DNA of 64,000 nt from an uncultured Gammaproteobacteria bacterium (GCA_964599455.1 CAZREA010000004.1:1628-65627); one strand, 5' to 3'; numbered from the stretch's first letter, positions 1,943 to 56,178 are shown. Numbers and translations are program-made. The notes: generated by a model from the sequence alone, not told the origin.

Positions 1943-2055
1943 CGCGTTTATTTGGGTCATTTTGGAGCCCTCATCGCTGCGGCCGACTCACCGTATGTTT
2001 AATACGGCTCGTCGGTCCTCGCTCTTCGGGTCCAAACTGCCTCCAAATAAACACG
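1943..2055. repeat. R1 hairpin repeat, copy A
   Basis: Core 'CTCATCGCTGCGGCCGACTCACCGTA..TACGGCTCGTCGGTCCTCGCTCTTCGG' between terminal inverted repeats CGCGTTTATTTGG/CCAAATAAACACG; near-identical to copy B. Confidence 0.7.
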
Positions 2056-2101
2056 AATCTTTCTTCCACTTTCCTCTTTTTCAAATCTCATCTCCTTCTA
2101 C

Positions 2102-3043
2102 TCAGAGAAGCATTGCAGTAAGAACACGTTTTGCATTTCGCGAGGCAATTGCTGTAAGTGTCTCCTCGCTGATATTACGATGACGAAGTTCTTGAAAAAG
2201 ATCGAGAATGCCCGCAACGGTATCAAGACCATCGATGGTTCCGCTGATGATGCCGCCGAGATCGGTTCCAAGATGAACGTGTTGAGGTCCCATGATGTCG
2301 AGCATGTGTTCGATGTGATTGGCAACGTCGCGTATGGTTGCTTTGCGATCGCTGCAGATGAAGCGATTGGCAAACATGATACCCACCGAACCATCGCGTT
2401 CGGCAATCGCTCGTAATTGGCGATCAGTGAGGTTTCGTGGCGAATCGCAAAGTGCTCGAGCATTGGCGTGACTCACGTAAATCGGACCGTCGGCTACTTC
2501 GGTGGCATTCCAAAATGTCGGTTCGTTCATGTGTGCGAAATCGATAACCATGCGACGCTCGCCAAGAAACGTCAGCACATCTTTTCCCAGTGGAGTTAAT
2601 CCTGCAGCATCATCTTTTGTCCCTCCGCCTAGTGCGTTGGTAAGATTCCAAACAATACCAACGGACCGTAGACCGAGGTCATACCAACGATTGAGACGTA
2701 TCCAATCTTCCTTTGTACCACTAAAGACATTCAAGCCTTCAATGTGGAGAAGAAGATTGTTGCGAGAGGCATCCAGAGTATCTTTTGTTGTTGCGATACT
2801 CCAATCTGGTGTGCAGTTGCAATGTGATCGATACGCGAGAAGATCATTTTCAATAAGCGTATTCACAGATGCATCGAACCACGCCTCGTTTTCGGGGATA
2901 GGAAAGGCGGTAGCGACAGTGCACGTAACATGTTGATCTTGTAACATGTCGTAATCGGTCTGTTGGTTTTGTTTATAGAAATCTCGATAGCGCAAGTGCG
3001 CGAGAAGATCCTGGTGGCAATCAATGAGAGGAAGGTTTTGCAT
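2102..3043 (-). CDS. membrane dipeptidase (peptidase family M19)
   Basis: 'IDCHQDL' N-terminal metal-binding motif and M19-like body. Confidence 0.7.
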   Translation of the reverse strand: MQNLPLIDCHQDLLAHLRYRDFYKQNQQTDYDMLQDQHVTCTVATAFPIPENEAWFDASVNTLIENDLLAYRSHCNCTPDWSIATTKDTLDASRNNLLLHIEGLNVFSGTKEDWIRLNRWYDLGLRSVGIVWNLTNALGGGTKDDAAGLTPLGKDVLTFLGERRMVIDFAHMNEPTFWNATEVADGPIYVSHANARALCDSPRNLTDRQLRAIAERDGSVGIMFANRFICSDRKATIRDVANHIEHMLDIMGPQHVHLGTDLGGIISGTIDGLDTVAGILDLFQELRHRNISEETLTAIASRNAKRVLTAMLL

Positions 3044-3081
3044 AAGAGGAAAGTGTGGGGCTAGCGAACCAGCCCCAGGAA

Positions 3082-4200
3082 TTACGTACGCAGTCGCGTC
3101 ATCAGGCGGACGGCGTTTTCGACGTCAGCGAGTGGTGCCTCGAGTGCCCACGGGTGGATGTGGATCGCTTCACCGCTCGAGATGAGGTCATACTGACTCA
3201 GGAATGAACCGTCTTTGATATCGTAGAACGGTTCAGGACAGGCAGCGATCGCTTCACGCAGTTGGTTGTTGGCTCTGTACCGCTCTTCGTTTGCCGCCCT
3301 GATGAGCACGGTCTTTTCATCCGCATTTGCTTCACGCATCTTTTTCGCCCACGAGTCGCGCATGAATTCGAGCGCCAGATAGCTTTCAATGAGTTCTTGC
3401 AGTGCCTGCTGGCGACTCTTGGTTACCGCGAAGCGCATTTCGGCAACTCGCACGACGTGATAAGTCATCGCCTCGGGGAGTTCGGGCATGACTTCACGCA
3501 AACCATTGTAGAGTTGGTGCAATTGCGGTTGAAGAGGAGCAATGTAGACGAACATATCAGGACCGGAGAGCGAGAATACTTCGCGTTCACCCATAATCAC
3601 AGCATCGATCACTCCATCCATGAGAATATTGAGGATATTGGGCATGAGCCAGCCGTTGGTGAGTGACGTGATGCCAAAGAATCCATGACGACTGAGTGAG
3701 CTCGCGTTCATGCGATCCTGCACCGTCTGTCCGCTTATCATAACGCGACGTTCGAAGAGCGCAGGGAAACGCTCGGCGAAGAAACGAGCGATACGCATGC
3801 TACGTTCGGAATGCTTTGGAAGAAAATCGGCATTCAGTCGTTCGGCGTTGAGACAGGGGATCGCGTAGCGAAGCGCCTGCATGTGATTTGCACTGATGAA
3901 TTCACCTTGACGCATATGCTCGGTCGGCTGTTCGACCTTCGCGTGCGTCATCAGTAGATCGGGGCTTCCGACGATCGTCTGCCTTCCACCTTGAATCACC
4001 GTATGCGGGTGAAAATTTTTGTCGCGTTCACCCCGTGTTTGATCGCAGATTTTCATGCGAATGCCGAGCGAGGCGATGGCGAGATTGTTTGGATACCAAT
4101 TGCCAACGTGCGGCGTTTTCATGACGCAACGGCCAGCACGTGAAAGTCCCACGAGTTGGTTGAGTGACAAATCGTTCCTGATATTGACGTGAAAGGGCAT
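3082..4200 (-). CDS. GCS2/YbdK-like carboxylate-amine ligase (start moved to internal Met with GGAGG SD)
   Basis: Weak similarity to the YbdK family; 'aaacGGAGGtcacATG' upstream of internal ATG. Confidence 0.45.
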   Translation of the reverse strand: MPFHVNIRNDLSLNQLVGLSRAGRCVMKTPHVGNWYPNNLAIASLGIRMKICDQTRGERDKNFHPHTVIQGGRQTIVGSPDLLMTHAKVEQPTEHMRQGEFISANHMQALRYAIPCLNAERLNADFLPKHSERSMRIARFFAERFPALFERRVMISGQTVQDRMNASSLSRHGFFGITSLTNGWLMPNILNILMDGVIDAVIMGEREVFSLSGPDMFVYIAPLQPQLHQLYNGLREVMPELPEAMTYHVVRVAEMRFAVTKSRQQALQELIESYLALEFMRDSWAKKMREANADEKTVLIRAANEERYRANNQLREAIAACPEPFYDIKDGSFLSQYDLISSGEAIHIHPWALEAPLADVENAVRLMTRLRT

Positions 4201-4273
4201 GTGACCTCCGTTTGCATGATGTGTCCGCCGCTCCGCGCGCGCGAAGCGGCGGAGTCGACGTGCAAGCGTCAAC

Positions 4274-4306
4274 AAAAAAAACCGCCGAAGTTCGCGGCGG
4301 TTTTTT
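4274..4306. terminator. bidirectional intrinsic terminator
   Basis: A-run, stem CCGCCGaagttcGCGGCGG, T-run. Confidence 0.6.
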
Positions 4307-4458
4307 GTCAGATGCTTGCTTTAGACAAGCGAAAAGATGACGGAACCACGCGAACGCAAAAGAGAGACATGCCAATAGCCATGCTGCGTTGCGTGAGTGG
4401 TTTGCGTCGAAAATGCGTTCATAGTTCTTTCCTTAGAATATCTTGTTCCAAACCTTTG

Positions 4459-5799
4459 TCAAGGAATGATCTCAACGGGCGTTCCGATTTCCGCCCAATT
4501 ATAGACTTTCTCAGCATCAAGTAAGCTAGTATTCACGCAGCCGTGACTCATACGATGACCAAAATTATTGTGCCAGTAGGCGGAGTGAATGTAGTAATGA
4601 TTGCGGAAGCGAAGATTCCATTTGACGTTGGGAAGGGAATAGTTATTGCGATTACCTGCACCGTAGTACCAGGAGTAGTCATGGACGGGAAGTTTCGCGA
4701 GTACGGCTGTTTTTCCGAGCGGCGTCGGAAACGAGTACGTTCCACTTGAAATGAGGAATGAAAAAGCAGGAATGCCGTACACATATGCTCTGAGCCGTTG
4801 CTCAGAAACATCAACACGAATATATTTCGCAGAAACATCAGCAAAAAGCGGTGTGACCGCATTGCCTGCCACGATAAGATTGCCATTGTTATCCGATCCA
4901 CTTGCAAGGGCAAGGAATGCATCACTCGCGGATGAAAAAGTTGTCATGGTGCCATTGGTCAAAGAGATGCTTGCTGTTGTAGAGAATGCTGGACTACCCG
5001 AAATACTCTCTTTTTGTTGCAAAATCATGGCGCGAGGCTGTGTTGCGGCGCTACTCAGTGTTGTTTCAGAAATCTTTTTTAAAGAGCCATCTTCAGTATC
5101 AAAGATAGTGCGAACCGGTACATCATAGGCAGCGGGAGCAGTGATAATCTCCAATTCTGCATCGGCATCCGCATTTCCCACATTCACCAGCAAACCGGTT
5201 ACTTTTTCTTTACTTCCTACAAAGTTTTCATCAATAATTTTTCCTGTTGCCGAAAAAACTTTCAAATGCGGACCACCTCCAGGGCCTGACCCGGTGATAA
5301 TTTCTGCTTTGCCATCGCCGGTTACATCACCACAGGCAATGTTCACGCCACCGGTAAAACCTGCGTCATAGGCAAAAAATCCCCCAATGGCCTCGCCCAT
5401 GCTGGTGAATATCCGAACATGTGGTCCGCCACCAAAACCGGCGCCCGTAACAATTTCTTGTTGTCCATCGCCATCAAGGTCGCAGGCGGCAACATAGACG
5501 CCTCCGGTAAAGGCTTCGGTATAGGCGGAAAAAGAACCAATCAGCGTGCCATCTTGGCGAAAAACGCCAACCGTGGGTTTTGATCCGTATCCAGCTCCGA
5601 CAAGAATTTCGGCAATGCCATCATCACCTAAATCGCCAAGAGCGACGGAACCAATGGTGATATCGGTAAAGGGCGTGAATGAACTAATAAGCGTACTATC
5701 GCGATAGAGTTTGACGGTGGCGTCTTGGGCAAAGGTGCTCTTGGGGAAAAGGATGCATCCAGCAAGAAGAAGGAAGGAGAGGAGGTGACGAGAGGACAT
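4459..5799 (-). CDS. secreted FG-GAP repeat protein with C-terminal L,D-transpeptidase (YkuD) domain
   Basis: Signal peptide; repeated 'GDxxGDGxxEI' FG-GAP units; catalytic 'SHGCVN' motif. Confidence 0.7.
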   Translation of the reverse strand: MSSRHLLSFLLLAGCILFPKSTFAQDATVKLYRDSTLISSFTPFTDITIGSVALGDLGDDGIAEILVGAGYGSKPTVGVFRQDGTLIGSFSAYTEAFTGGVYVAACDLDGDGQQEIVTGAGFGGGPHVRIFTSMGEAIGGFFAYDAGFTGGVNIACGDVTGDGKAEIITGSGPGGGPHLKVFSATGKIIDENFVGSKEKVTGLLVNVGNADADAELEIITAPAAYDVPVRTIFDTEDGSLKKISETTLSSAATQPRAMILQQKESISGSPAFSTTASISLTNGTMTTFSSASDAFLALASGSDNNGNLIVAGNAVTPLFADVSAKYIRVDVSEQRLRAYVYGIPAFSFLISSGTYSFPTPLGKTAVLAKLPVHDYSWYYGAGNRNNYSLPNVKWNLRFRNHYYIHSAYWHNNFGHRMSHGCVNTSLLDAEKVYNWAEIGTPVEIIP

Positions 5800-5844
5800 A
5801 GGGGAAATGTTTTCCCTAGTATATAGGATGTCATCTCATCATGG

Positions 5845-5877
5845 CGAAAAAAACAACAGCCGCCTGTGTGGCGGCTG
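5845..5877 (-). terminator. intrinsic terminator for 5899..6222
   Basis: CAGCCGCCtgtgtGGCGGCTG then T-run on minus strand. Confidence 0.5.
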
Positions 5878-5898
5878 AAGTGAGAGTATTTTTGAGGT

Positions 5899-6222
5899 CT
5901 ATACTTTGGTTTCTGAATCGCTACTATCTTCATCATCAGGACGGTTATCATGTTCTTTGGTAACTATCTCTCCTGAAGGAGTTCTTGTATGAAAAAGAAT
6001 AGCTGGACTTTGTTCATCGAGATCAGGATCGGGCTCGGTAGCAATATCCACATCCTCCTCTTTGAGATCTGGTATCCTTTCTTGTCTCCCACTTAAGAGG
6101 TCTAGGGTCTCGAGCTCCTTTGTAAGATTTTCTTCTCTTCCCTCACCTGTACTTGTATCATCCGCCCCATAGGGATTTCCTAAAGATTTACCCCATTCCC
6201 ATGTATTCTTTTCTTCACGCAT
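5899..6222 (-). CDS. acidic hypothetical protein (107 aa)
   Basis: ORF with its own downstream terminator; D/E-rich; lower GC than neighbours. Confidence 0.35.
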   Translation of the reverse strand: MREEKNTWEWGKSLGNPYGADDTSTGEGREENLTKELETLDLLSGRQERIPDLKEEDVDIATEPDPDLDEQSPAILFHTRTPSGEIVTKEHDNRPDDEDSSDSETKV

Positions 6223-6349
6223 ATAATGAAAGTATACTTGAGGTGATTGTTTTTGAAAAAGCCTATTTTGTGACTATTCTCCTGTGGTCGCTTGATGTAT
6301 TATAAAGTTTGCAAAAAATAATCGATAGGGTATAGTATTCGGGCTTTTC

Positions 6350-6425
6350 GGGCCCTTAGCTTAGTTGGTAGAGCGCCGCATTTGCAATGCGGAGGTCATC
6401 GGTTCAAATCCGATAGGGTCCACCA
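6350..6425 (+). tRNA. tRNA-Ala (anticodon UGC), CCA encoded
   Basis: Cloverleaf with G3:U70, anticodon loop tTGCa, T-arm GGTTCAAATCC, 3' CCA. Confidence 0.9.
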
Positions 6426-6426
6426 C

Positions 6427-6549
6427 AAAACCGTTTTATTTGGGCCATTTTGGACTCCTCATCGCTGCGGTCGACTCACCGTACGTCATTGTACGGCTCG
6501 TCGATCCTCGCTCTTCGGAACCAAACTGTCTCCAAATAAAACGGTTTTG
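6427..6549. repeat. R1 hairpin repeat, copy B, abutting tRNA-Ala 3' end
   Basis: Perfect 18-bp terminal inverted repeat CAAAACCGTTTTATTTGG/CCAAATAAAACGGTTTTG; core ~90% identical to copy A. Confidence 0.75.
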
Positions 6550-6597
6550 TTTTCAGTACTTTTCTATCCGTTCGCCGTTACGTATCATTGAGGAGAA

Positions 6598-6629
6598 TAA
6601 AAATCCGGCATTACTTGCCGGATTTTTTT
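6598..6629. terminator. bidirectional intrinsic terminator
   Basis: ATCCGGCAttacTTGCCGGAT flanked by A-run and T-run. Confidence 0.6.
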
Positions 6630-6904
6630 CTGTGCACTTCTCGAACAAAATCTTCAACAAGCTCACTTACAAGACTGGGAGAAGCTTCTCTTCCGAATTC
6701 TAGAACGGTATCTTCATCGACAAAGGGATCATGATCACCTAGACCAACTACGGGAACAGGCTCTAGGCTAAATGGAGGTATCGGGGTTTCTTGGGAGCCT
6801 TTGCTTGGAGCCTTTATTTTTTCTACTTTTACGCGGAGACCTTGAGGAGGTTCTGTATTTTCAGCATTCATAAAATAGGAAAAGATATTACTTTTGTTTA
6901 TCAC
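6611..6904 (-). CDS. hypothetical protein (97 aa)
   Basis: ORF only; its C-terminal codons overlap the terminator hairpin. Confidence 0.3.
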   Translation of the reverse strand: MINKSNIFSYFMNAENTEPPQGLRVKVEKIKAPSKGSQETPIPPFSLEPVPVVGLGDHDPFVDEDTVLEFGREASPSLVSELVEDFVREVHRKKSGK

Positions 6905-7621
6905 TTATTCAATCATCGAAAAATCAAGTGTTGATTTGATCATTTCCCATCCGGAACGCTGCTCTTCCCACATGCCAGGACCAAAATACAGTGCCGACAC
7001 ATGAGCATCGGTGACATACTGGATACTTTCAAATGGTCCCGAGGCGATGCCTTCGACGTATGCACCACTGATGGAGTAGAGGATACCCTTTCCCTTTTTC
7101 TCTGAGGTGATGACCAGATCTTGTATGCCCTCGTATTCTTTATAAAGATAGGCTTCGTACGAAATTGCGCCTCCAAGATCCAAAGAGGAGGTGCGGAAGG
7201 TCTGGATATTGATAGGGATATTTGTTTCTTCGCTGGGAGTATAGGTTATGAGTGGTCCTGGTCCTAGGTCCATGCGAAAAAGAAAAAGCGTATCTGCTTC
7301 GGGTTCGCCAATGATTTCGGTGCCCGATGCCGACCAGGTTGCAGGATAGGAAAAACCGGGGTGCAGAGCACTCGGTGCAACGGCAAGGGGAGCGGCATTT
7401 TCATTTTTCGCTATCGCTAATTGTGAGGCGCATGCGGCAGTCAGTTCATTCGCACGCTGTTGCACGGCAGTGGTCACTTCTTCGCCACAGATGTCGACAA
7501 TGGCATTCTTGGGTCCTTTGCTGATAATGTTCACGATGAGCGCAACGGCAATCAGTGAAAGAATGAGAATGGTAATAAGCAGGCCGACGATGAGTTGATG
7601 ATGTTTGAGATCTTTAGGCAT
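6905..7621 (-). CDS. membrane-anchored hypothetical protein (single N-terminal TM helix)
   Basis: N-terminal hydrophobic helix then soluble domain; start overlaps the small upstream ORF. Confidence 0.5.
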   Translation of the reverse strand: MPKDLKHHQLIVGLLITILILSLIAVALIVNIISKGPKNAIVDICGEEVTTAVQQRANELTAACASQLAIAKNENAAPLAVAPSALHPGFSYPATWSASGTEIIGEPEADTLFLFRMDLGPGPLITYTPSEETNIPINIQTFRTSSLDLGGAISYEAYLYKEYEGIQDLVITSEKKGKGILYSISGAYVEGIASGPFESIQYVTDAHVSALYFGPGMWEEQRSGWEMIKSTLDFSMIE

Positions 7622-7739
7622 AGAAGGACATTTTGATTAAATAGTAAACCGCAATGCCGAGAAGGCCAATATTCCACACCAACAGCATGATAATCCAGAA
7701 GTGCAATTTTGTATCTGAAGAAGGAGATTTTGCAGGCAT
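7614..7739 (-). CDS. 41-aa small membrane peptide (MPAKSPSSDTKLHFWIIMLLVWNIGLLGIAVYYLIKMSFYA), not in track
   Basis: Fills the gap between two minus-strand genes; stop overlaps the downstream start (ATGCCTAA). Confidence 0.3.
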   Translation of the reverse strand: MPAKSPSSDTKLHFWIIMLLVWNIGLLGIAVYYLIKMSFYA

Positions 7740-7744
7740 ACGAT

Positions 7745-8368: not shown

Positions 8369-8397
8369 GTCGAAAATAAAAGATTTCTTCGAGTTTC

Positions 8398-9390: not shown

Positions 9391-9449
9391 AGGAGGGGAG
9401 AAAGGGGAGAGAGGAAGGTGAATATGGAACGAAGAGTAGTGAAGCTTTT

Positions 9450-42873: not shown

Positions 42874-43368
42874 GCTTGGCGCGCCGGACGGCTATGCGTG
42901 GTTTACCACGTAAGGAAAGTCCGAACACCCTTTGTGCAGCAATGCACAATGAGCAAAGGCGTTGTTAACGACAACCAGGAAGAGATCGCAAGATCAGAGC
43001 CTAGGGAAAGTCTCATCTCGACGCAAGAACGGATGAGGTCAAAATCGGCGGGAAACGGCCGACAATGACGCAACAGAGACATTCAAACCTCCTTCGATTT
43101 GTTCATGGAGGCAAAAGGTGAAACGTGATGGGGACGCAAGTTTCCCATCTCCCTGCATGGTGACATGCAGGGTGGCAAACCCGCCTTGGTGCAAGAGCAA
43201 GATTGGTAGCTCGCTTGCCCCCAACGGAGCTCCGACCCACTTTGCGCAAGCTAGGTGGGGAGGAGCGAAGTGGGGCTTAGGTCACTGGCAACAGTGATCA
43301 CAGAGAAATGGCCGTCTCCCCCGAGCGTAAGCGAGGGGCCAGACAAAATTCGGCTTACAGGCGCGTCC
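42874..43368 (+). ncRNA. rnpB: RNase P RNA
   Basis: 'GGAAAGTCCGAACAC' (CR-I) and 'ACAAAATTCGGCTTACAG' (CR-IV/V); promoter and terminator flank it. Confidence 0.75.
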
Positions 43369-43409
43369 AAACAAAAACACACCTTCGTCAGCGAAGGTGT
43401 GTTTTTGTT
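43369..43409. terminator. bidirectional intrinsic terminator after rnpB
   Basis: AAACAAAAACACACCTTCGtcagCGAAGGTGTGTTTTTGTT. Confidence 0.7.
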
Positions 43410-46427: not shown

Positions 46428-46832
46428 TTACCAGTGTTTCCGATCATTGGTATAAATAATTCTTCGAAAATAAAGAGACATCATACCAAAATTCAAGAGG
46501 TAACCTAATTCATAACCTGTCACTTTAAGATAATCTCTCAATTGCGTTTCGTGAATTTTTACGGAATATTTTGTTGCCTTCATCTCAAGAATAATTTTAT
46601 CCGAGATAAGAAAGTCTGGCTGATACCAACCTAATCTTTTTTTCGTATCCACGGAATAAACGGGGATTTTTGGTTGATTTACGTAAGGAATTTTATGAAG
46701 CTCTAATTTTTCTTGAAATGCTCTCTCATAAATAACTTCTTTATGGGCAGATCCATATGAGTTATGAACGTCTATAGCAATACCAATAATTGCATGGCTA
46801 AGTTCTGGATGAAGATTTACAGAGGTATTCAT
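46428..46832 (-). CDS. GxxExxY-like protein (PD-(D/E)xK superfamily), internal start
   Basis: 'ELSHAIIGIAIDVHNSYGSAHKEVIYERAF..DFLI..IILEMKA' pattern. Confidence 0.5.
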   Translation of the reverse strand: MNTSVNLHPELSHAIIGIAIDVHNSYGSAHKEVIYERAFQEKLELHKIPYVNQPKIPVYSVDTKKRLGWYQPDFLISDKIILEMKATKYSVKIHETQLRDYLKVTGYELGYLLNFGMMSLYFRRIIYTNDRKHW

Positions 46833-46914
46833 GAAGAGGAGTATAACAAAAAGACCCCGAGTTCGTCGGAGTCTTTTGTGATCTGTCATTATTTTTTTGA
46901 TCTGTGTAAATCTG

Positions 46915-48792
46915 TTATACCTCAATAATCACCGGCAGAATCATCGGTCGTCGTTCCGTCTGTTGGAACAAGAATTTTCCGAGCTCCTCACGAATCGTGG
47001 TTTTTACTTGGTCGGGATCAAGTGGAGTGGAGGGAGTAGAATCTTTCAACGCCTTTGCCAAATGGAAACGCATTTTGTTCACGAATTCTTTGTTCTCCTT
47101 CATCTGAATAAAGCCACGACTAATGATGTCGGGTTCAGTAATAAGGGCACCGGTCTTTTGTTCGAATTGCGCAATGACAACGAGCATACCATCTTCAGCC
47201 ATCGCTTGACGATCGCGAAGAACAACTTGGGAAATATCTCCTACACCCAGTCCATCGACATACACATGATCAACAGGCACTTTTTCGTTGGTCATGTGTG
47301 CTTCGCCGAATGGCGATCCCGCTTTGGGGGGAAGAATTTCGATAATCTGTCCATTGTCTGCAACGAAGACGTTTTCTTCGCTCCATCCCATCGAATAGGC
47401 AACATCAGCATTTTCACGCAATAAAAAGTGGTTGCCTTCAATCGGCATGTAGTACTTTGGTTTAAAGAGCGCGATCATGAGTTTGATGTCCTCTTTTTTT
47501 GCATGACCTCCGGCGTGAACGTCCATGAGATCTTTGTGAATGACACGTGCGCGCTTGCGATACAGAAGATCTTTGAGGCGCTGTACGGAAGCCTCATTTC
47601 CCGGAATAACTGAGCTTGAGAAAATAAGTGTGTCATCCTGATCGAGACGAATAAAGCGGTGTTCATCATTGGCAATACGTGAAAGTGCCGCATTTTTTTC
47701 ACCCTGCGCACCTGTACAGATAACGGTAATTTTTTCGGGAGGGTAATTATTCACTTGTTCAATTGGAATAATATTTTTTTCTGCTACTTTAATAAATCCA
47801 AGTTCTTTGGCGATTTCGACGTTGGTTTTCATGGAATACCCATCGAGAGCGATTTTTCGTCCACAGCGCTCGGAAATTTCCATGATCTGTTTCACGCGGG
47901 ATAAGAGTGAAGCGAAGGTAGCGATAATCACGCGACCTTTGGCCTTTTCAATAATGCCCTGCAGTTCTTCGCCAATAATTTTCTCAGATTTTTGATGGCC
48001 AGGATGCTCAGCATTGGTGGAATCTCCCATGAGCAGTGTAACGCCCTGTTCGCCAAGGCGAGCCATTTTATGAAAATCTGCAGGTGCTTCCCCGACAGGA
48101 TGGAAGTCATACTTCCAATCTCCGGTGTGCGAAATGATGCCGTTAGGTGTTTCGACCACAATTCCTGCAGCGTCGGGGATATTGTGATTGATGTTGAAAA
48201 AGTGCACTTTAAAAACACCAAGTTGGAGCGTTGTTTCGATGGAAATGGTTTTAACGGTAACCTGAGATTCGGGAAAATCTGTTTGTCGCTTTTTGATAAT
48301 ACCGGCCGCCATTGGAAGGGCGTAGACGGTGGGATTTCCAATTTTTGGAAGTACATGCGGAATAGCGCCGATGTGATCGTAGTGACCATGGGTAATAATC
48401 ACGCCACGGATATTTTTTTCTTTTCCGCGAAGATACGACATGTTCGGGATGAGGTAGTCAACGCCAGGCATTTCTTCGGTGGGGAACATGAGTCCCATGT
48501 CGATGAGAATGATGTCGTTTTTATACTCGATGAGTGTACAGTTGATGCCGACTTCTTCAAGTCCACCTAAAACGATGACACGAACTTTGTCATCGGTGGG
48601 TGCGGGATAGAGCGTGGGAGCATTATTGTGCTCGGTGCTCACAAGTGGGGCATTTGGACCGCGTTGTTTAGAGGCGCGGAAGTTTCCGCGAGCAAATGAT
48701 GGGCGTTTGCCTTGGGGTGCACCTGCGGCCGGAGCAGCACGATGCGGTTGTGAGAATGGTTTAAAATTTCCCATAACAGTGAAATTAAGCAC
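46915..48792 (-). CDS. rnj: ribonuclease J
   Basis: Metallo-beta-lactamase 'ITHGHYDHIGA', beta-CASP and C-terminal domain; basic N-terminal extension. Confidence 0.85.
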   Translation of the reverse strand: MLNFTVMGNFKPFSQPHRAAPAAGAPQGKRPSFARGNFRASKQRGPNAPLVSTEHNNAPTLYPAPTDDKVRVIVLGGLEEVGINCTLIEYKNDIILIDMGLMFPTEEMPGVDYLIPNMSYLRGKEKNIRGVIITHGHYDHIGAIPHVLPKIGNPTVYALPMAAGIIKKRQTDFPESQVTVKTISIETTLQLGVFKVHFFNINHNIPDAAGIVVETPNGIISHTGDWKYDFHPVGEAPADFHKMARLGEQGVTLLMGDSTNAEHPGHQKSEKIIGEELQGIIEKAKGRVIIATFASLLSRVKQIMEISERCGRKIALDGYSMKTNVEIAKELGFIKVAEKNIIPIEQVNNYPPEKITVICTGAQGEKNAALSRIANDEHRFIRLDQDDTLIFSSSVIPGNEASVQRLKDLLYRKRARVIHKDLMDVHAGGHAKKEDIKLMIALFKPKYYMPIEGNHFLLRENADVAYSMGWSEENVFVADNGQIIEILPPKAGSPFGEAHMTNEKVPVDHVYVDGLGVGDISQVVLRDRQAMAEDGMLVVIAQFEQKTGALITEPDIISRGFIQMKENKEFVNKMRFHLAKALKDSTPSTPLDPDQVKTTIREELGKFLFQQTERRPMILPVIIEV

Positions 48793-49045
48793 AGGACTTT
48801 CGAAAGAACGTGATTTGTCGATAAAAACGGCTAACCGTTTTTATCGCTATGTTTCGAGATTCGAAAATTCTGATCTGAAATAATAAGTTCAAAATTTCAA
48901 AACGAATTTGAGATTTTAAATTTAGTATTTAGAGCTGTAGAAAAAAGAAAGGGAAGGTGTTTGGAATAAGAATGGTGAGAGCGAAGATATGGGATCTCTT
49001 TATTTTTTCACTGACTAGGCGCCGGCGATAGCGAACGGAAGGTAG

Positions 49046-49170
49046 CAGAACCTTTTAAAATGATTCAGGCCTAGGAGGCTACACGACGCAGGCCGAGACG
49101 TACTGCAGACGTACGTTGAGGCCGAGTCGAGTGTCGCCGACAACGGCATGGAGCATTTTAAAAGGTTCTG
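49046..49170. repeat. R2 repeat copy a, enclosed by a perfect 17-bp inverted repeat, abutting tRNA-Leu 3' end
   Basis: CAGAACCTTTTAAAATG / CATTTTAAAAGGTTCTG flank a core ~85% identical to R2b with ACGTAC-N7-GTACGT. Confidence 0.65.
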
Positions 49171-49172
49171 TC

Positions 49173-49259
49173 TGGTGCGGATGGAGGGACTTGAACCCTC
49201 AAGGTGTCACCACCACAGGCTTCTGAGACCTGCGCGTATGCCAATTCCGCCACATCCGC
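49173..49259 (-). tRNA. tRNA-Leu (anticodon CAG), long variable arm, CCA encoded
   Basis: Anticodon loop ctCAGaa, long extra arm, T-arm GGTTCAAGTCC. Confidence 0.85.
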
Positions 49260-49321
49260 CTGTTGGACATCGCGTCCAAAAATCATCATGAACAATACCA
49301 GATCCTCCCTTTTGGGTCAAT

Positions 49322-51019
49322 TTACTTCAGAATGCGCTTGGTTTTGAGATACCAGGCTTCGATAGGAGCGAAACGATCAGCGGGCGTGGAAAGACTGTGC
49401 AGGGGACTGGTGGTAAGGCGAGGAGGAAGGAGAAGGGCAAAAGGCGATTGGTAGAAGAAAATTGCCGGTGTTTGTGCGAGGATTTCTTGTGTTAATGCGG
49501 TATAGGCCTGCGTACGTGTTTCGGGATTTGACGAGGAGCGCAGAGCAGTGACGGCTTCATCGATCACCTTTGAAGAGAACTGCGTGATGTTCAGTCCAGA
49601 GCCGCTTGTTTGCGAGGAATGCCAAAATGGATAGGGGTCAGCAATGGCACCGTAGCGTTCGGCGGTTAACAGTACATCGAAATTGCGTTCTTTAATCAGC
49701 GACAAAAGTGTGGCGTCATCGACGGTTGAAACTTGTACCGAGATACCGAGTGCCGACCAGGTTTCTTTCATTTTTTCTGTAAGCAGTTCGTACTCGGGAA
49801 TGTGTGAACTTAAAATCGTCAGTGATAAGGTGGTGGTATTTTTTGCACGCACTCCCTGTTCATTGAGTTTCCATCCCGCTTCATCCAAAAGTGTTGCTGC
49901 TTGCACGGGATCGGCTCCAGTTAATGGGGATGACGAAAATCCGGGTAAGCCGAAGGTGATGGCCTGTGCCATGTTTTGTGTCGCGTGCGCGGTAATGGAC
50001 GATCGATCAAGTGCAAGTGCGAGAGCTTTACGCACTTCTGCTTGTGCAAGTACATCGCGCTTCGTATTGAAAAATGCACCAACGTATTGGGTTAAGCTTG
50101 GGGTTTGGAGAGTGAAATCATTTTGCGCCAATATTTTAGCGGTTGTGATGTCTAATCCCGCTGCGCTCGTGACATATTTATTTTTTACGGCTTCGGTTAA
50201 TGAAAAGATGTCGGGGAAGAACTTGACGGTAATTTCTTTCATGTATGGCACTTGATGATAGCTTTCTTGATTGGAGTACAGAGTGACGCTACGTAGTGAT
50301 CCGCGTGAATCCTTGCTCAATTTTCCAAAGGTATAAGGGCCCGAACCAATCGGCTTAATGTTGAGTGGTGCTAACTTGGCATTGCTGGGTGCGATATCCG
50401 CCCACAAATGGGAAGGCAAGATGCCTGTTGTCAACAAAGAAGGAAACGCTGCGTAAGGTTCGGTGAGGGTAAATGTAAATGTTTGGTCATCAATTGCAGC
50501 GAGAGTAACTTTGCTAAATGCATCAAAAAGTGGGCTGCCAAAAGCGGGATCTTGAATAGCTTGAAAAGTGAAGAGGACATCCTGCAAGGTTACCGGTTCA
50601 TGATCGTGCCATTTTGCATCTGCGCGCAAGGTGAGGGTGTACACCTTGCCATCTTCACTTATGCTAAAACTGGAGGCAAGATCAGGAATAAAGGTTGCTT
50701 GGTCGGGATCAAAACGTAAAAGGCCACTAAAAACAAGTGCGGTTAAATCTTGATCAACATCGTTGGAAAGGGCATACAAGGGATTGATAAGTTGGGGATA
50801 ACCCACTACACCCTCAACGAGATTGCCACCCGAACTGGGCACGGGCATGGTTATTTCTTGCAGTGCACCAATGCTAAGAAAAAAGATTCCTAATACGGTT
50901 GCTGCGAAAGCTCCACGAAAGAGTTTTTGTTCCTTTGTCGATAAAATGTTGCCGAGCATCCGCCACTGTTGCCATGAGGGTAGTGAGTGGAGGGATTTTG
51001 CAGCAGCTAATTGACGCAT
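49322..51019 (-). CDS. ABC transporter substrate-binding protein, family 5 (peptide/nickel type)
   Basis: N-terminal TM/signal; SBP_bac_5-like length and motifs. Confidence 0.65.
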   Translation of the reverse strand: MRQLAAAKSLHSLPSWQQWRMLGNILSTKEQKLFRGAFAATVLGIFFLSIGALQEITMPVPSSGGNLVEGVVGYPQLINPLYALSNDVDQDLTALVFSGLLRFDPDQATFIPDLASSFSISEDGKVYTLTLRADAKWHDHEPVTLQDVLFTFQAIQDPAFGSPLFDAFSKVTLAAIDDQTFTFTLTEPYAAFPSLLTTGILPSHLWADIAPSNAKLAPLNIKPIGSGPYTFGKLSKDSRGSLRSVTLYSNQESYHQVPYMKEITVKFFPDIFSLTEAVKNKYVTSAAGLDITTAKILAQNDFTLQTPSLTQYVGAFFNTKRDVLAQAEVRKALALALDRSSITAHATQNMAQAITFGLPGFSSSPLTGADPVQAATLLDEAGWKLNEQGVRAKNTTTLSLTILSSHIPEYELLTEKMKETWSALGISVQVSTVDDATLLSLIKERNFDVLLTAERYGAIADPYPFWHSSQTSGSGLNITQFSSKVIDEAVTALRSSSNPETRTQAYTALTQEILAQTPAIFFYQSPFALLLPPRLTTSPLHSLSTPADRFAPIEAWYLKTKRILK

Positions 51020-51113
51020 GGCGAAACGCTCACTCGAAAGGGTGGTCGAGCGTCGTGAACGAAAAAATGTGCGCAGGCGTTGAAGTATAGAGAGAATGCT
51101 TACTGCTCAAGGT

Positions 51114-51329
51114 TTACCAGGCAAAAAGCATGTTCAGCGCGCCGGCAACAAAGAAAAGGACAGCAACGACAATGGTAAAAATATGCAGACCGCGTTCGAT
51201 GCCGCGACGCGTGCGATACATGCTGCCATCGCCGCCAAAGGCAAGGCCAGCGTCACTGCCTCGAGCTTGCAATAAAATCCCTCCACATAACAAGAGTGCA
51301 AAAATGACCAAAAGAATGTCGAGAATCAT
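51114..51329 (-). CDS. secG: preprotein translocase subunit SecG (internal start)
   Basis: Two TM helices; 'LLQARGSDAGLAFGGDGSMYRTRRG' SecG pattern. Confidence 0.6.
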   Translation of the reverse strand: MILDILLVIFALLLCGGILLQARGSDAGLAFGGDGSMYRTRRGIERGLHIFTIVVAVLFFVAGALNMLFAW

Positions 51330-51576
51330 ATCGCCGAGAGCATAGCAAGAAACCCGAAAAAAGTGAAATAAGAGAGGTGGGTCTAGCTGGGCTAGGACGT
51401 AGGTGGAGGCGAAGGGATGAACAGACCCTGACTCTGAGCGAAGCGAAGAGGAAGGGCCTAGAAAAATTTCTGCGTAACACAATCGTTTACGAGACCTTTC
51501 CTAACGTCAGGGTCTTTTTGCTCCTTATCTTGTTCAGCTTGTCCGCTCCTTCAGTGCTATACTGTTTATATCTGCT

Positions 51577-52344
51577 ATGGAACAGGATGCTACACCTATT
51601 GAGCGCGAAGTTTCATCCCATGAAGTGGCTCATCGCCCTTCTTGGACGAAAATTTTGGCAACGATCGTGTTGTGCGGTGTCATTGCGCTTGTGCTTTCTT
51701 TTTCTTGGAAGGTGTTTGCCTACTATCAAGAGATTAAAAATGGCACGTTAGATCCTAACCTCGGCACCTTTTCCTCAACAACCATCAGTGCTGATCGCTT
51801 ACAGCTACTTGCACAAAGTGCTCCGGGGAGCGGTATGTTGGCAACTGCAGACGATCCTTCGCTCGGGATAGCTGACGCCGCGGTCACTATCGTGGCTTTT
51901 GCAGATTTTGGTTGTCCCTATTCGCAAGAAGAAAGCTATATTTTGCGCGCAATCACCAAAGCCTTTCCTGAAGATGTGCGAGTAATCTACCGAGATTTTC
52001 CTTTAATTGAACTCCATCCAGGCGCTGACCTGGCGGCACAAGCTGCTGAGTGTGCATCTGAGCAGGGGAAATTTGGGGAGATGTATGATGAGCTGTATCG
52101 TAATCCTCCCGAGTTTACGGCGGAAGATCTTGAAGCAACGGCGCTGTCGTTGGGCTTAGATGGGAATGTATACAAAAAGTGCATGGCGTCCGGGTATTAT
52201 CAGGAGGAAGTGGCGCAAGACATTGCTGATGGTGTGGCTGCGGGCGTAACCGGTACCCCAACCTTGTTTATTAATGGAATTAAAGTTGAAGGTGCAATGC
52301 CGTATGGAGTTCTTACCCAAGTTGTTACTGCCATGGTTCCGTAA
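51577..52344 (+). CDS. membrane-anchored DsbA-family thioredoxin-fold protein with CPYS (CxxS) active site
   Basis: TM helix; 'FADFGCPYSQ' at the DsbA active-site position with Ser replacing the second Cys. Confidence 0.6.
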   Translation: MEQDATPIEREVSSHEVAHRPSWTKILATIVLCGVIALVLSFSWKVFAYYQEIKNGTLDPNLGTFSSTTISADRLQLLAQSAPGSGMLATADDPSLGIADAAVTIVAFADFGCPYSQEESYILRAITKAFPEDVRVIYRDFPLIELHPGADLAAQAAECASEQGKFGEMYDELYRNPPEFTAEDLEATALSLGLDGNVYKKCMASGYYQEEVAQDIADGVAAGVTGTPTLFINGIKVEGAMPYGVLTQVVTAMVP

Positions 52345-53803
52345 AGCGGCGCTCATTGGCGTTATTTTTCTTTTTGCATTGCCAGGAAAAGCGCAGGCCG
52401 CAGATACGTGTACCTGTTTTTGTGGTAATAACGAATTGGGTGCCGTGGAGTCGGTAACCTATGACTCGGCGGCTGATTGCGCGAAGAGTTGTCGGGATGC
52501 GGGAACATTGTATGTCGGATGTTTTACGAATGAAACCTATTTTCCAGAAAATAGCGACTTGTGTTGGACTGAGATGGAATGCGAAAGTCATCCAATTGAA
52601 GTTGCCGGTAAAACGTATTATGGAAGCTGGACTTCCCAGTCTCCGTACTGTAGTAAAAAACCGATAACCGGTGCGGAGATGGGGTATTGTTATGGTCCGT
52701 TGAGACCCATTACCCTTTCGGTTCCCATTTTTGGCACAACGGAAATTGGTGATTTAGGGCAGTACGTCAATCTTCTGTACACGTATGCGATACCGATCGC
52801 TGCGCTGATCGCCGTTCTGTTGTTTATGATTGCGGGGTTTCAATACATGACCGCAGGTGGTGATAAGAAAGGGGTGACGCAGGCAAAAGAGCGCATGAAA
52901 AATACGGTCATTGGTCTCATCTTACTTTTATCAGTTTACGCCATCGCTAATTTCCTCGATCCTCGCTTGGTACGGTTTACCTCTCTGCGCCCACCATTGA
53001 TTAAAGAAGCGGTGCTTATTGATGCGCAAACAACCTGCGAAGCCATGCAGGAGTATGGATATACCATTCAACCTACCTCGGGTTCTTGTGGTAATAAGGG
53101 AACAATTGTCGATGATGATGGCGTGCAGGGGAATATTGCCAATCCACCCGATATGGGAGACACCTGTACATTTAGTGCATGTTCGGAAAGCGGGAAAGCC
53201 TGTGCATTGAATTCGGATGGAAGCGGTGGCGTTTGTGTGGCGTGTAATCAAATCTCCTCTAACTCGGTTACGGTTTCTGTCACGCCATCTACCGCGACAT
53301 GCAAGGGTATCGCAAAGACTGCTGATACTAATGATCGTAATGATCTGCACGTCTACTCTTGTTACTATGATGATGATTTGTTAGGAAGTGACGAGTGTGT
53401 ACAGCTCTATACTTCCGGTGAAAATTATATAAATTGCGCCGAACTGTATGGGTATATGGAAACAACGGCGTGGGGTGAAGATGGGTGTGATGCCTATGAA
53501 AAATTGAACGCAGATTCGTATGGCCTAAACACCGACGGAACACTGTCGGCGATGTTTATGGCGGGCAGCGCCGATGAGATTGGTGATTTTGAAGAAGTAT
53601 TCCAGAGACTATGCGAGGATGATCCGTGCAAAATGGCGGAAAAAAGTGGGCAGAACAGTTGTGTGTTTCAAGTGACTGACAGTTTAACGAATAGTGCATT
53701 ATCTTCGCTTCCCGGCGTTACGGGAATGTTTGCCTCTTATGTCATTGATCAGAATTTAAACTGTATCGGACAAAAGACACTTGATGCATCAGGATCTGAG
53801 TAA
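52304..53803 (+). CDS. secreted cysteine-rich protein (~28 Cys) with central pair of TM helices (VirB2/TrbC-pilin-like hairpin)
   Basis: Signal peptide; two Cys-rich extracytoplasmic domains; 'IAALIAVLLFMIAGFQYMTAGGDKKG..VIGLILLLSVYAIANFL'. Confidence 0.5.
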   Translation: MEFLPKLLLPWFRKAALIGVIFLFALPGKAQAADTCTCFCGNNELGAVESVTYDSAADCAKSCRDAGTLYVGCFTNETYFPENSDLCWTEMECESHPIEVAGKTYYGSWTSQSPYCSKKPITGAEMGYCYGPLRPITLSVPIFGTTEIGDLGQYVNLLYTYAIPIAALIAVLLFMIAGFQYMTAGGDKKGVTQAKERMKNTVIGLILLLSVYAIANFLDPRLVRFTSLRPPLIKEAVLIDAQTTCEAMQEYGYTIQPTSGSCGNKGTIVDDDGVQGNIANPPDMGDTCTFSACSESGKACALNSDGSGGVCVACNQISSNSVTVSVTPSTATCKGIAKTADTNDRNDLHVYSCYYDDDLLGSDECVQLYTSGENYINCAELYGYMETTAWGEDGCDAYEKLNADSYGLNTDGTLSAMFMAGSADEIGDFEEVFQRLCEDDPCKMAEKSGQNSCVFQVTDSLTNSALSSLPGVTGMFASYVIDQNLNCIGQKTLDASGSE

Positions 53804-53804
53804 A

Positions 53805-53838
53805 CAAAAAAATCCGACCTGTATGGCCGGATTTTTTA
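53805..53838. terminator. bidirectional intrinsic terminator
   Basis: A-run ATCCGACCtgtatGGCCGGAT T-run. Confidence 0.55.
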
Positions 53839-54189
53839 TTACTTCTTTTTGATGATTACTTCTTTTAATTTGCGAGCGAAGTCTTTCACGAAGGTAAGTT
53901 TGGCGCGACGGACACGATAGGTTTTGACGAGTTCGATCTTATCGATAGAAGGAGAATGAACCGGGAAGATTTTTTCTACGCCAAATCCATCAGTTTCTTT
54001 GCGGATGGTAAAGGTGCGCGAAGTGCCTGCACCACGAACGGCAAGAACCAAGCCTTCAAATACCTGAATGCGTTCACGTTTTTCACCCTTGGCGCTAATG
54101 TCTTGCACCTTTTCGTGAATGCGCAACATTTGACCAGAAGTGATATCAGCGGGGGTGATAACCGCGTATTCTTTGTTGTTTTGTGCCAT
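53839..54189 (-). CDS. rplS: 50S ribosomal protein L19 (internal start)
   Basis: 'RVRRAKL' and L19 body. Confidence 0.85.
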   Translation of the reverse strand: MAQNNKEYAVITPADITSGQMLRIHEKVQDISAKGEKRERIQVFEGLVLAVRGAGTSRTFTIRKETDGFGVEKIFPVHSPSIDKIELVKTYRVRRAKLTFVKDFARKLKEVIIKKK

Positions 54190-54248
54190 AGAAGAGAGGG
54201 GAATTGCCCAAAAGAATGGGCGAATAGTAGCCAAATTGCCTATCGGCG

Positions 54249-54806
54249 TCAAGCTTCGACGGGGATATGGGCTAAAATTTGCTCAAGAACTTCCTTTGGA
54301 GTCAGTGAGGTAGTGTCGATAACCAGGTCGTAATGGGTGATATCAAGGAAATCGACGCCGTACCATTGTTGGAGTCGTTTTTGGTTTTGGGCGACGCGTG
54401 CGGCGATGGCCTGAGCCGCATCTTCGACTGATGCATAGAGTCGTTCATCTTGTCGGGATTTTCCTTCAGATTGCTGCTCGGTAAAGATTCGCCGTGCTCC
54501 TTCGAACGGATCGATCGTTAAGAATACTTTAAAACTCTGAGGAATAAAATGCCATGACATCCAGCCGTCGATGATAAAGTTGTCTTCTTTTTCTCCTAAC
54601 TCTTTCTGGAATACATCGACAAGTTGGTCGCTGGTAGGATCGTACATTCCCTGGGCATTCAGTTCATCAATGGTCATGCCGTGCTCCAGGGCATATTTTC
54701 CGCGCAGGTCTCCCATGCCATAGGATTTCCATCCTACTGTTTCGGCTAGGAGTTTTTTGATCGTACTTTTGCCAGCACCTGCCAATCCACCCAGACTGAT
54801 AATCAT
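54249..54806 (-). CDS. cytidylate kinase-like P-loop NMP kinase
   Basis: 'ISLGGLAGAGKST' Walker A. Confidence 0.5.
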   Translation of the reverse strand: MIISLGGLAGAGKSTIKKLLAETVGWKSYGMGDLRGKYALEHGMTIDELNAQGMYDPTSDQLVDVFQKELGEKEDNFIIDGWMSWHFIPQSFKVFLTIDPFEGARRIFTEQQSEGKSRQDERLYASVEDAAQAIAARVAQNQKRLQQWYGVDFLDITHYDLVIDTTSLTPKEVLEQILAHIPVEA

Positions 54807-55753
54807 ACGGTAGGATAAGGTTTGAGTTGGGAAAGTACCGCTTGCAGTTCGGTGGGAAGCGGAGCGGTAAAGGCGGTGCGTTCACCAGAAGGAAGCGTAA
54901 GCGTGAGTGATGAGGCGTGCAGAAAAAGTCGTCCGAGTGGCATCGACTTTTTGTTGCGGTGCACGTACAGTGTGTCTCCGGCAACGGGATGACCGATGGC
55001 GAACATATGGGCACGAATTTGGTGTGTGCGCCCGGTTTCAATGCGGATTGTAAGAAGAGTAGAACTCGAGTAGCAGGTGGTGCGTTTGTAGTGGGTGATC
55101 GCTTCTTTTCCTTCTTGCGAAAGAGGTCGTGCGGCCATGCGTCCGCGCGTTGTTGAGCGAGCGATAGGGAAAGTGATCGTGCCGTGCTCGTCTTGTACAT
55201 GACCAAGAACCAGGACGGTATAGATCTTTTCTGTTTCTCGATTTTTAAACTGCTCTTTCAAGAATGCGTGAGTTTGTTCATTTTTTGCCAACACCACAAC
55301 ACCTGAGGCGTCTTTGTCGAGACGATGGACAACGCCCGATCGCAACGGATTGCCGCCTACCCCAGCCATGGATGGAATATGTGCCACGGCCGCATCCATA
55401 AGCGTCGTTGGTTGTTCTTTTGCTGCGCCTGTTGGATGCGTGAGTATTCCGGCGGGTTTATTGACGACCAAAACATGCTCGTCTTCAAAAAGAATATCCA
55501 ATGTCAGAGGAGTGTGAGGTGTTGAACTTACCGCAGAAGAAGATTCCTCTATGGTAATGACGTCGCTTGGCAAAATCATGGTATGAGCAGATACCAAGGC
55601 ATCATTAACCAAAATACGCCCTTCTTTGATGAGTTTTTGGGCTTGGTTGCGACTGATTGCCATCTTTTCTGCCAAGGCTACATCGAGTCGTTTGGCAAGA
55701 GTATCATGAGAAGGAATGTCAGACATGGCCAGAGTATGGCAGAAAATGTTCAT
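54803..55753 (-). CDS. RluA-family pseudouridine synthase (RluD-like)
   Basis: S4 domain plus 'HRLDKDASG' catalytic motif. Confidence 0.8.
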   Translation of the reverse strand: MNIFCHTLAMSDIPSHDTLAKRLDVALAEKMAISRNQAQKLIKEGRILVNDALVSAHTMILPSDVITIEESSSAVSSTPHTPLTLDILFEDEHVLVVNKPAGILTHPTGAAKEQPTTLMDAAVAHIPSMAGVGGNPLRSGVVHRLDKDASGVVVLAKNEQTHAFLKEQFKNRETEKIYTVLVLGHVQDEHGTITFPIARSTTRGRMAARPLSQEGKEAITHYKRTTCYSSSTLLTIRIETGRTHQIRAHMFAIGHPVAGDTLYVHRNKKSMPLGRLFLHASSLTLTLPSGERTAFTAPLPTELQAVLSQLKPYPTV

Positions 55754-55814
55754 TTGGGCTACAGTAAAGGGCGTTTAGAAATGCGCGACGACGGCTGACT
55801 AAGTTTGTCAGATG

Positions 55815-55890
55815 CTAGGAGGCAATACGACGCAGGTCGAGACGTACTACAGCCGTACGTTGAAACCGAGTTCAGTATTGCCGACACCGC
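55815..55890. repeat. R2 repeat copy b, ~30 nt upstream of tRNA-Ile(UAU)
   Basis: 'CTAGGAGGCaaTACGACGCAGGtCGAGACGTACtacagccGTACGTTGA..' ~85% identical to R2a. Confidence 0.6.
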
Positions 55891-55920
55891 AGCTGGCAAA
55901 CTTGGGTCGGCTGTCGGTAC

Positions 55921-55997
55921 GGGCCTGTAGCTCAGTTGGTTAGAGCTCCGAGCTTATACCTCGGTGGTCCCTGGTTCGAATCCAGGCAGGCCTACCA
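55921..55997 (+). tRNA. tRNA-Ile (anticodon UAU), CCA encoded
   Basis: Anticodon stem CCGAG/CTCGG with loop ctTATac; Ile-type D-arm TAGCTCAGTTGGTTAGAGC; T-arm GGTTCGAATCC. Confidence 0.7.
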
Positions 55998-56000
55998 TTG

Positions 56001-56178
56001 AAAGCCTTTTTATTCGGGCTATTTTCTGCCTTCATCACTGCGGTCAACTCACCGTACAGAAGAAGTACGGCTTTCTCCTTCGCTAAAGCTTCGGGGGAAT
56101 GACCCCGTAGCTTACAGCGGAGGGTCATCGTTGATCCTCGTTCTTCAGGACAGGAATTATCTCCAAATAAAAAGGTTT
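56001..56178. repeat. R1 hairpin repeat, copy C (longer variant), abutting tRNA-Ile 3' end
   Basis: Same terminal inverted repeats and 'CATCACTGCGGTCAACTCACCGTA' core plus ~55-nt internal insertion. Confidence 0.65.

Follow-up and report, generated by a model that had tools for sequence, protein, structure and literature searches.

Within a window of 64 kb (the whole stretch that we analysed, 64,000 nucleotides from GCA_964599455.1, CAZREA010000004.1:1628-65627, deposited for an uncultured Gammaproteobacteria bacterium), a hairpin-forming repeat, which we call R1, is present in three copies, and two of them are joined to the 3' ends of tRNA genes. In our reading, R1 is a young branch, specific to this genome, of a broader family of non-coding hairpins of about 120-130 nt in a Patescibacteria clade related to Candidatus Uhrbacteria. 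The family, which has a second branch named R2, is previously undescribed and in kind belongs with the bacterial palindromic repeat elements. The reading that we favour, with a probability of roughly 55%, is that R1 and R2 are a non-autonomous mobile (or recently mobile) hairpin, which depends on a single-stranded form, behaves like the REPINs (doublets of repetitive extragenic palindromic, REP, sequences forming hairpins) and is tolerated in the leaders and trailers of tRNAs.

Reading of the sequence, alignment and tRNA prediction with ARAGORN bore out the three copies given in a preliminary description of this DNA, and also the junction of two of them with tRNA 3' ends. R1A occupies 1938-2060, R1B 6426-6551 and R1C 55999-56180, and in each the strand that we name the GA strand is the minus strand. 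R1B begins 1 nt past the CCA of tRNA-Ala(UGC) (6350-6425, plus strand), and its GA strand is antisense to this tRNA. R1C begins 3 nt past the CCA of tRNA-Ile(UAU) (55921-55997, plus strand) and lies upstream of two conserved open reading frames (ORFs) for small membrane proteins. R1A is found between a basic ORF of 34 codons with its terminator, both on the plus strand, and the stop codon of an M19 dipeptidase gene on the minus strand (stop at 2102-2104); both R1A and R1B lie between convergent genes. The common unit spans TTTATTTGGG to CTCCAAATAAA, about 105 nt in A and B, and these two copies are 88% identical over 106 nt by BLAST. R1B and R1C are 81% identical by BLAST in two blocks, which are split by an insertion in C; this insertion had been described as about 55 nt with its own hairpin, and it is 56 nt long (56072-56127). 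A 26-nt core of R1 occurs three times at no more than 3 mismatches, where 100 shuffles gave an expectation of 0, and the second half of the core was found at the same stringency in A and B only, again with 0 expected by chance. No further R1 copy was found in the window by an R1 covariance-model search with the filters off.

Two ORFs, 1875..2183 and 6365..6703, had been regarded as simple translations of the repeat. Both ORFs exist, and they read R1 in different frames. A protein-database search with the concatenated translations of the R1 frames gave no homologue at E up to 10. Because of the different frames and the lack of a homologue of these translations, the two ORFs are most likely not genes.

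The R2 branch was revealed by a repeat search of the window, with two copies. R2a (49046-49170, plus strand) begins 2 nt past the CCA of tRNA-Leu(CAG) (49173-49259, minus strand, by ARAGORN) and its GA strand is antisense to tRNA-Leu. R2b (55790-55917, plus strand) lies in the 5' leader of tRNA-Ile(UAU), past a conserved promoter, and ends 3 nt before the tRNA, so that two mutually inverted elements flank this gene, R2b at the 5' end and R1C at the 3' end. R2 is built like R1: its outer stem is long, its internal loops are small, and CGTAC...GTACG forms the apical stem. The R1 covariance model matched R2a on the minus strand with 39.4 bits (E 3e-7), against 16.8 bits on the plus strand, and R2b on the minus strand with 20.9 bits; the R2 model matched R1A and R1B in full length on the minus strand with 38.8 and 36.7 bits (E about 1e-7). 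From these reciprocal and strand-specific matches, the minus strand of R1 corresponds to the plus strand of R2. A superfamily model run with the filters off found no further member; it misses R1C because of the insertion there, and with R1C added the window holds five members of the family. So the repeat is not limited to the three copies first described. Covariance models found family relatives, and Rfam 15 gave no match to the repeat at the gathering score over the whole window and no meaningful match at E up to 10 around R1B, R2b and R1C.

Each R1 copy forms one long imperfect hairpin, with z from -6.8 to -10.2 on both strands compared with dinucleotide shuffles, which agrees with the long stem-loop first proposed for the whole unit. 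The inverted repeat of R1B is perfect over 19 bp (6425-6443 / 6532-6550) and takes in the last A of the CCA. Compensatory changes are abundant. Double changes were seen in 13 of 44 pairs among the three R1 copies, with one single-sided change and four broken cells, and in 20 of 41 pairs among four R2 copies. An alignment of 11 copies, which excludes R1C, has 93.7% of its cells paired and double changes in 32 of 41 pairs; when the partner was slid by 1-3 columns the paired fraction was 32-42%, and none of 500 shuffles reached the observed values. This alignment was fitted to the model, which favours pairing, and the gap to the slid controls is larger than that explains.

The hairpins are also strongly strand-biased. 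The GA strand takes its name from the tandem G·A/G·A mismatches that make up its internal loops; on it, ..CGAG and ..UGAG border the apex. On this strand the 11-copy alignment has 40 G·U cells against 3 A·C cells. The GA strand folds 10-23 kcal/mol better than its complement in 11 of 12 copies, and the asymmetry persists with DNA parameters. For R1A the folding energy is -63.5 kcal/mol on the minus strand and -52.1 kcal/mol on the plus strand, with covariance-model scores of 84 and 18 bits, respectively; for R1B the scores are 90.5 and 31 bits. The apex CGTAC...GTACG is invariant in all 11 copies aligned, the inner loops are conserved, and the distal stem is the least conserved part.

The similarity between copies ends sharply, and the outermost 7-25 bp of each stem are copy-specific. 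Examples from R1 stems are ATTCGCG/CACGAAT, AAAACCGT/ACGGTTTT and AAAGCCTT/AAGGTTTT; the outermost 7-9 bp of R1A and R1B differ yet still pair. Between R2a and R2b, identity is 84% across the inner 75 nt and falls to about 30% in the outer stems, which measure about 25 bp. This mosaic build could come from a fast-evolving clamp stem, from recombination or gene conversion among copies, or from cores inserted into older hairpins. We also considered that the outer stems were pre-existing terminators with the element placed in their loop. For R1B and R2a this is possible, and at the tRNA-Ile sites it is unsupported: the empty sites of relatives have no hairpin there, so the outer stem came with the element.

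Four of the five copies in the window lie within 0-4 nt of a tRNA gene, and every tRNA-adjacent copy, in the window and in related contigs (numbered with the letter L), turns the 3' end of its GA strand towards the tRNA. The copies upstream, whose GA strand runs in the tRNA sense, are R2b, the copies of L027, L034 and L035, and those at 69-196, 5700-5829 and 5834-5962 of L037, the last of which adjoins tRNA-Leu with 0 nt between them. The copies downstream, whose GA strand runs antisense to the tRNA, are R1B, R1C, R2a and 6136-6258 of L037. R2a and R2b are on opposite sides of different tRNAs and both follow this rule, yet their cores are 84% identical, so the rule is not merely two inherited ancestral arrangements. 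Under this rule, what is transcribed along with the tRNA in R1B and in the R2-type copies behind tRNA-Leu is the strand that folds poorly. R1C is oriented in the same way, but there the tRNA-sense strand is slightly the better folding one. The tRNA promoters of the window have a consistent form, TTGnCn-17-TATAGT, at 6308-6336, 56899-56871, 49320-49292 and 55757-55768, and the form in the tRNA-Ile leader, (G)AGCTAYAGTA, is kept across the clade.

Comparison with relatives gave filled and empty sites at the same positions. The gene order around the RluD-type pseudouridine synthase gene is conserved, with cmk, L19, pilin, DsbA, SecG, SBP, tRNA-Leu, RNase J and TrpRS. A tRNA-Ile with the anticodon UAU is uncommon in bacteria, and its gene stands beside RluD at the same position in the window, L027, L033-L036, L159 and L160. 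The leader of this tRNA has an R2-type element in the window, L027, L030 (whose contig starts inside the element), L034, L035 and L037; it is empty in L029, L033, L036, L159 (Candidatus Uhrbacteria GW2011_GWD2_52_7) and L160/L161. At the empty sites only 5-20 nt of leader separate the promoter GAGCTATAGTA from tRNA-Ile. On a rough RluD tree the genomes with and without the element are intermixed, and therefore several gains or precise losses are needed. At the 3' side of tRNA-Ile, R1C is found in the window only, and the site is empty in L027, L034, L035 and L036. L037 has two tandem copies in the tRNA-Leu leader, one copy downstream of that tRNA and one in the tRNA-Ile leader.

Truncated and nested copies were seen too. 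L027 (880-960) and L034 (860-930) each carry, on the tRNA-Ile strand and ahead of the full copy, a truncated 5' half of an R2-type element (GACTTGCCACTAAGTT...), which suggests repeated insertion at the same site. The 56-nt insertion of R1C (56072-56127, plus strand) is next to the apical stem-loop and folds as its own hairpin; it resembles a small hairpin after tRNA-Leu in L037 (6045-6136), and none of 2000 shuffles scored as high. It has the look of a different small palindromic element that was inserted within R1C. Directly past the CCA of tRNA-Leu in L037 and of tRNA-Ile in L033 (1-38, reverse strand, where the contig ends inside) there are small hairpins of about 35-55 nt, and together with the R1C insertion they may be a third, miniature palindromic family. 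Several short-read contigs of the relatives end within or beside the tRNA-Ile gene or a hairpin element. The hairpin repeats may cause such assembly breaks.

The mobile hairpin reading is favoured because related copies are dispersed and are present or absent at orthologous sites, because nested, tandem and truncated copies occur, because the elements have no coding capacity and make no target duplication, because selection acts on the single-stranded hairpin regardless of the local direction of transcription, and because the orientation to the structured neighbour is fixed. The sequences show the family itself, its hairpin structure and covariation, the strand bias, the orientation rule and the variable presence at orthologous sites; that the element moves as a single strand and seeks out structured DNA is our inference. 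The propagating form would be the single GA strand, as DNA or RNA, folded as one long hairpin. New copies would land beside strongly structured DNA, usually at the base of the acceptor stem, either before or after the tRNA gene, and in one case beside a terminator instead, and at landing the 3' end of the GA strand would face the tRNA. Leaders and trailers of tRNAs would tolerate the insert because it would be removed in normal end-processing. The element itself would bring no protein and would be mobilised by an outside enzyme. As a side effect, the hairpins are probably leaky terminators or RNA-end structures for the neighbouring genes.

Several observations weigh against this reading. Pfam scans of the larger ORFs of the window found no transposase, integrase, reverse transcriptase or HUH nuclease. 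Among the five copies of the window, target-site duplication is seen at none of R1A, R1B, R2a and R2b, and the possible TTG at R1C could be chance. Most transposons have conserved ends, and the termini of these elements are not conserved. The independent events behind the orientation rule number about 6-7. The exact pattern CTGCGGYCRACTCACCGTA gave 12 matches in a set of one genome per species and 12 in the JGI metagenome set, all of them bare 19-28-nt chance matches whose flanks show no similarity, with no further R1; these scans required exact matches. Finally, the loop motifs AGGAG and GAC are kept at the tRNA-Ile leader site across genomes in which RluD is only about 60% identical, and this could equally reflect a host function under purifying selection.

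The exact pattern CTGCGGYCRACTCACCGTA had no match in the viral collection, and blastn against plasmids and phages gave no match. A gapped R2 pattern had at least 120 matches in viral contigs; the R2 model fitted 0 of the 80 loci listed, and these were rejected as chance matches. A literature search on CPR (candidate phyla radiation) palindromic or MITE (miniature inverted-repeat transposable element) sequences next to tRNAs found nothing relevant.

A gene for a small PD-(D/E)XK nuclease (PF13366, PDDEXK_3) is present between RNase J and TrpRS in the window (46428-46925, minus strand) and in L037 (8203-8688), and is absent from this junction in L027, L029 and L030, the relatives in which RNase J and TrpRS are still neighbours. 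Of the genomes in view, the window's and L037 carry the most hairpin copies. This nuclease is a possible lead to the mobilising enzyme, by a weak association. A more far-reaching idea, which we put forward only tentatively, is that the family is a new class of selfish element or a tRNA-linked RNA, which recognises the base of the tRNA cloverleaf from either side and is inserted or processed strand-specifically through a single-stranded hairpin by an enzyme new to mobile DNA. The enzyme may be a tRNA-processing activity such as RNase P, or the small PD-(D/E)XK nuclease, and the element may grow by nesting hairpins inside hairpins.

The first alternative to a mobile hairpin is a cis-acting RNA element of the host. 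Downstream copies would be long intrinsic terminators or structures that protect or process the 3' end, and upstream copies would be leader structures that modulate RNase P processing or transcription. The main point for a host or RNA function is the conservation of the loop motifs at the tRNA-Ile leader mentioned above; conserved loops with covarying stems look like a functional RNA, and the leader copy lies past the conserved promoter and is therefore transcribed with the tRNA in several genomes. The convergent setting of R1A and R1B also speaks for this alternative, as do the ordinary terminators which other tRNAs here have directly past the CCA, for example tRNA-Val. The preliminary description let the unit end in a T-run, and this is correct for R1B (TTTTGTTTT) and R1C (TTTTTTG) and weak for R1A (CTTTCTT). 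On the transcribed strand a U-tract, a point in favour of this alternative, is present at R1B (UUUUGUUUU) and R1C (UUUUUUG), and is missing at R1A (CUUUCUU) and R2a (CUACCUU); a simple terminator scan does not score hairpins of this length. Selection on the strand made with the tRNA is not what we found, because in the 11-copy alignment the G·U pairs lie on the opposite strand, which is also the better folding one in R1A, R1B, R2a and 6136-6258 of L037. In the last three, the strand made with the tRNA folds 9-16 kcal/mol worse, with U·C/C·U loops and C·A mismatches; R1C is the exception. Moreover, an efficient terminator at R1C would cut two conserved co-directional ORFs off the tRNA promoter. 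Orthologous tRNAs in close relatives are entirely without elements, and it is unparsimonious that one family in opposite orientations should do two jobs. So we consider a host element of this kind rather unlikely, and the idea of a tRNA terminator, one of the options first proposed, is weakened by the antisense position of the better-folding strand (not in R1C), by the missing U-tracts at R1A and R2a and by the place of R1C before co-directional genes.

The two co-directional ORFs (56201-56740, plus strand, the same strand as tRNA-Ile) encode small conserved membrane proteins of 53 and 124 aa. In all relatives that could be examined downstream, orthologues of both follow tRNA-Ile after about 17-33 nt without a terminator. 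These ORFs are probably co-transcribed with tRNA-Ile.

A second alternative is that the hairpins are trans-acting structured small RNAs, which would be piggy-backed on tRNA genes and freed by RNase P or other enzymes of tRNA end-processing. Analogous arrangements are the dicistronic tRNA-snoRNA (small nucleolar RNA) genes of plants and the tRNA-linked C/D sRNAs (small RNAs) of Nanoarchaeum. The upstream GA strand ends 0-4 nt before the RNase P site, so RNase P would free a hairpin RNA of about 130 nt; the invariant apex with flanking tandem G·A motifs is typical of RNAs that bind protein, and the strong covariation and the G·U bias also point to an RNA. However, the downstream copies (R1B, R1C, R2a and 6136-6258 of L037) are antisense to the tRNA and have no evident promoter for the GA strand. 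Close relatives carry the elements only patchily, an RNA gene would not be expected to occur in nested, tandem and truncated copies, and no Rfam family matches. Free small RNAs are therefore quite unlikely in our view.

It is very unlikely that the family is a classical MITE derived from an insertion sequence, or a REP/REPIN sequence moved by a RAYT (REP-associated tyrosine transposase), with the parent transposase elsewhere in the genome. The elements are small, non-coding, dispersed, palindromic and multi-copy (five in 64 kb), and they are polymorphic in presence, with filled and empty orthologous sites, as is expected of a MITE; REPINs, too, form long hairpins in single-stranded DNA with frequent compensatory changes (PMC3116915). 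But the conserved terminal inverted repeats and the target-site duplication of a MITE were not found: the terminal sequences are the least conserved part, as R2a and R2b show, no duplication is consistent among copies, and no transposase was found among the larger ORFs of the 64 kb. Nor do the elements consist of two REP units whose distal 16-mers are conserved, and they have no evident GTAG or CGTC head; the compensated single-stranded hairpin expected of a REPIN is present. Thus, from the choice of terminator, MITE or small RNA in the preliminary description, a mobile element fits best, and it is not a classical MITE because the termini are least conserved and no target-site duplication was seen.

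The window sequence is identical to Logan contigs of SRR16481182 and SRR16481183. The nearest homologues of the RluD-type pseudouridine synthase adjoining tRNA-Ile have 58-67% identity, and those with names are from Patescibacteria or Candidatus Uhrbacteria. The window also encodes a T4SS (type IV secretion system)-pilin protein, which is typical of CPR bacteria. A homologue search with the orphan neighbour gene at 6905-7621 returned only the gene itself.

Some further features near R1A and elsewhere in the window were recorded. The 34-codon ORF before R1A (1753-1857) encodes a very basic, Lys/Ala-rich peptide, MAMAKKKAAKRPAKKAAKKAAPRRKVARKAAKRR, and was not called by the gene caller of the Logan contig. 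Between it and R1A, at 1858-1937, there are two mutually exclusive or pseudoknotted hairpins, GTGCAAAA..TTTTGCAC and ATCGCTTGATGA..CTCATCGGCGAT, with a T-run. Just before position 1, the window is continued by a Logan contig (L025, 14205-15397), which ends inside a 5S rRNA gene, so an rRNA operon immediately precedes the window. A bacterial class A RNase P RNA is present at 42876-43373, with 111 bits against a gathering score of 100; it has 498 nt where the model has 367 positions, and its large extra segments include one of about 90 nt within the P12 region and another, of about 48 nt, in a helix further on. An R1 or R2 copy inserted in this RNA was considered and rejected, since the extra length sits in its own helices.

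Genomes of CPR/Patescibacteria are about 1 Mb, tightly packed and held to be poor in repeats and mobile DNA. The family means that intragenomic replicators or tRNA-linked structured RNAs persist even in such tiny genomes, and its covariance model is a handle for finding how the elements move. In addition, hairpin elements of this type generate spurious ORFs and may break assemblies.

Among known systems, integron attC sites were rejected because, on inspection, the hairpins are variable at their base and have no R''/R' motifs there (RYYYAAC ... GTTRRRY) and the copies are dispersed beside tRNAs without a cassette array; attC, retron, 6S RNA, signal recognition particle (SRP) RNA, Y RNA and C/D-box RNA all lack their defining motifs or Rfam support here. 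Intrinsic bidirectional terminators are similar in that A-tract, stem and T-tract are found at the base of R1B and R1C, which stand at tRNA 3' ends, as in the genuine terminators of this genome, such as 56741-56769 after tRNA-Val and 6599-6628. There are also differences: the hairpins described here are about 10 times longer, are repeated and have a conserved interior, their better-folding strand is mostly not the one made with the tRNA, and R1A and R2a are without a U-tract.

Some mobile elements target DNA secondary structure. Class C group II introns insert after terminator hairpins, IS1397 and ISKpn1 insert in REP loops, and the IS200/IS605 family transposes as single-stranded DNA. Like them, R1 and R2 are next to or within stable hairpins, are strand-specific and make no target duplication; unlike them, they are bare hairpins of 125 nt, whereas those elements encode a reverse transcriptase/ribozyme or a transposase, or descend from elements that do, and have defined ends. 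The Rickettsia palindromic elements, the Correia elements and ERIC (enterobacterial repetitive intergenic consensus) sequences are also non-autonomous palindromes of 100-150 bp, which are co-transcribed, form long RNA hairpins and vary in presence between relatives. The Correia elements of Neisseria have conserved 26-bp terminal inverted repeats and a TA duplication, and the Rickettsia elements insert in frame in protein-coding genes. The present family differs from what is known of the Correia and Rickettsia elements in its variable termini, its strand-specific G·A/G·U signature and its preference for tRNA ends.

We know of no description of strict abutment to tRNA ends, or of an orientation rule like the one found here, for REPINs. 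As in the present family, REPINs are short, non-coding, extragenic and dispersed, each forms one long hairpin, and the single-stranded hairpin is what is selected; they form hairpins in single-stranded DNA or mRNA, with frequent compensatory changes on both sides of the hairpin (PMC3116915). No RAYT (Y1/HUH) gene was found among the larger ORFs of the window scanned against Pfam. A REPIN consists of two highly conserved distal REPs with a variable spacer, whereas in R1 and R2 conservation lies in the apex and the inner loops, and each copy has distal stems of its own. REPINs are thus the closest described analogue of the family, with the conservation pattern reversed.

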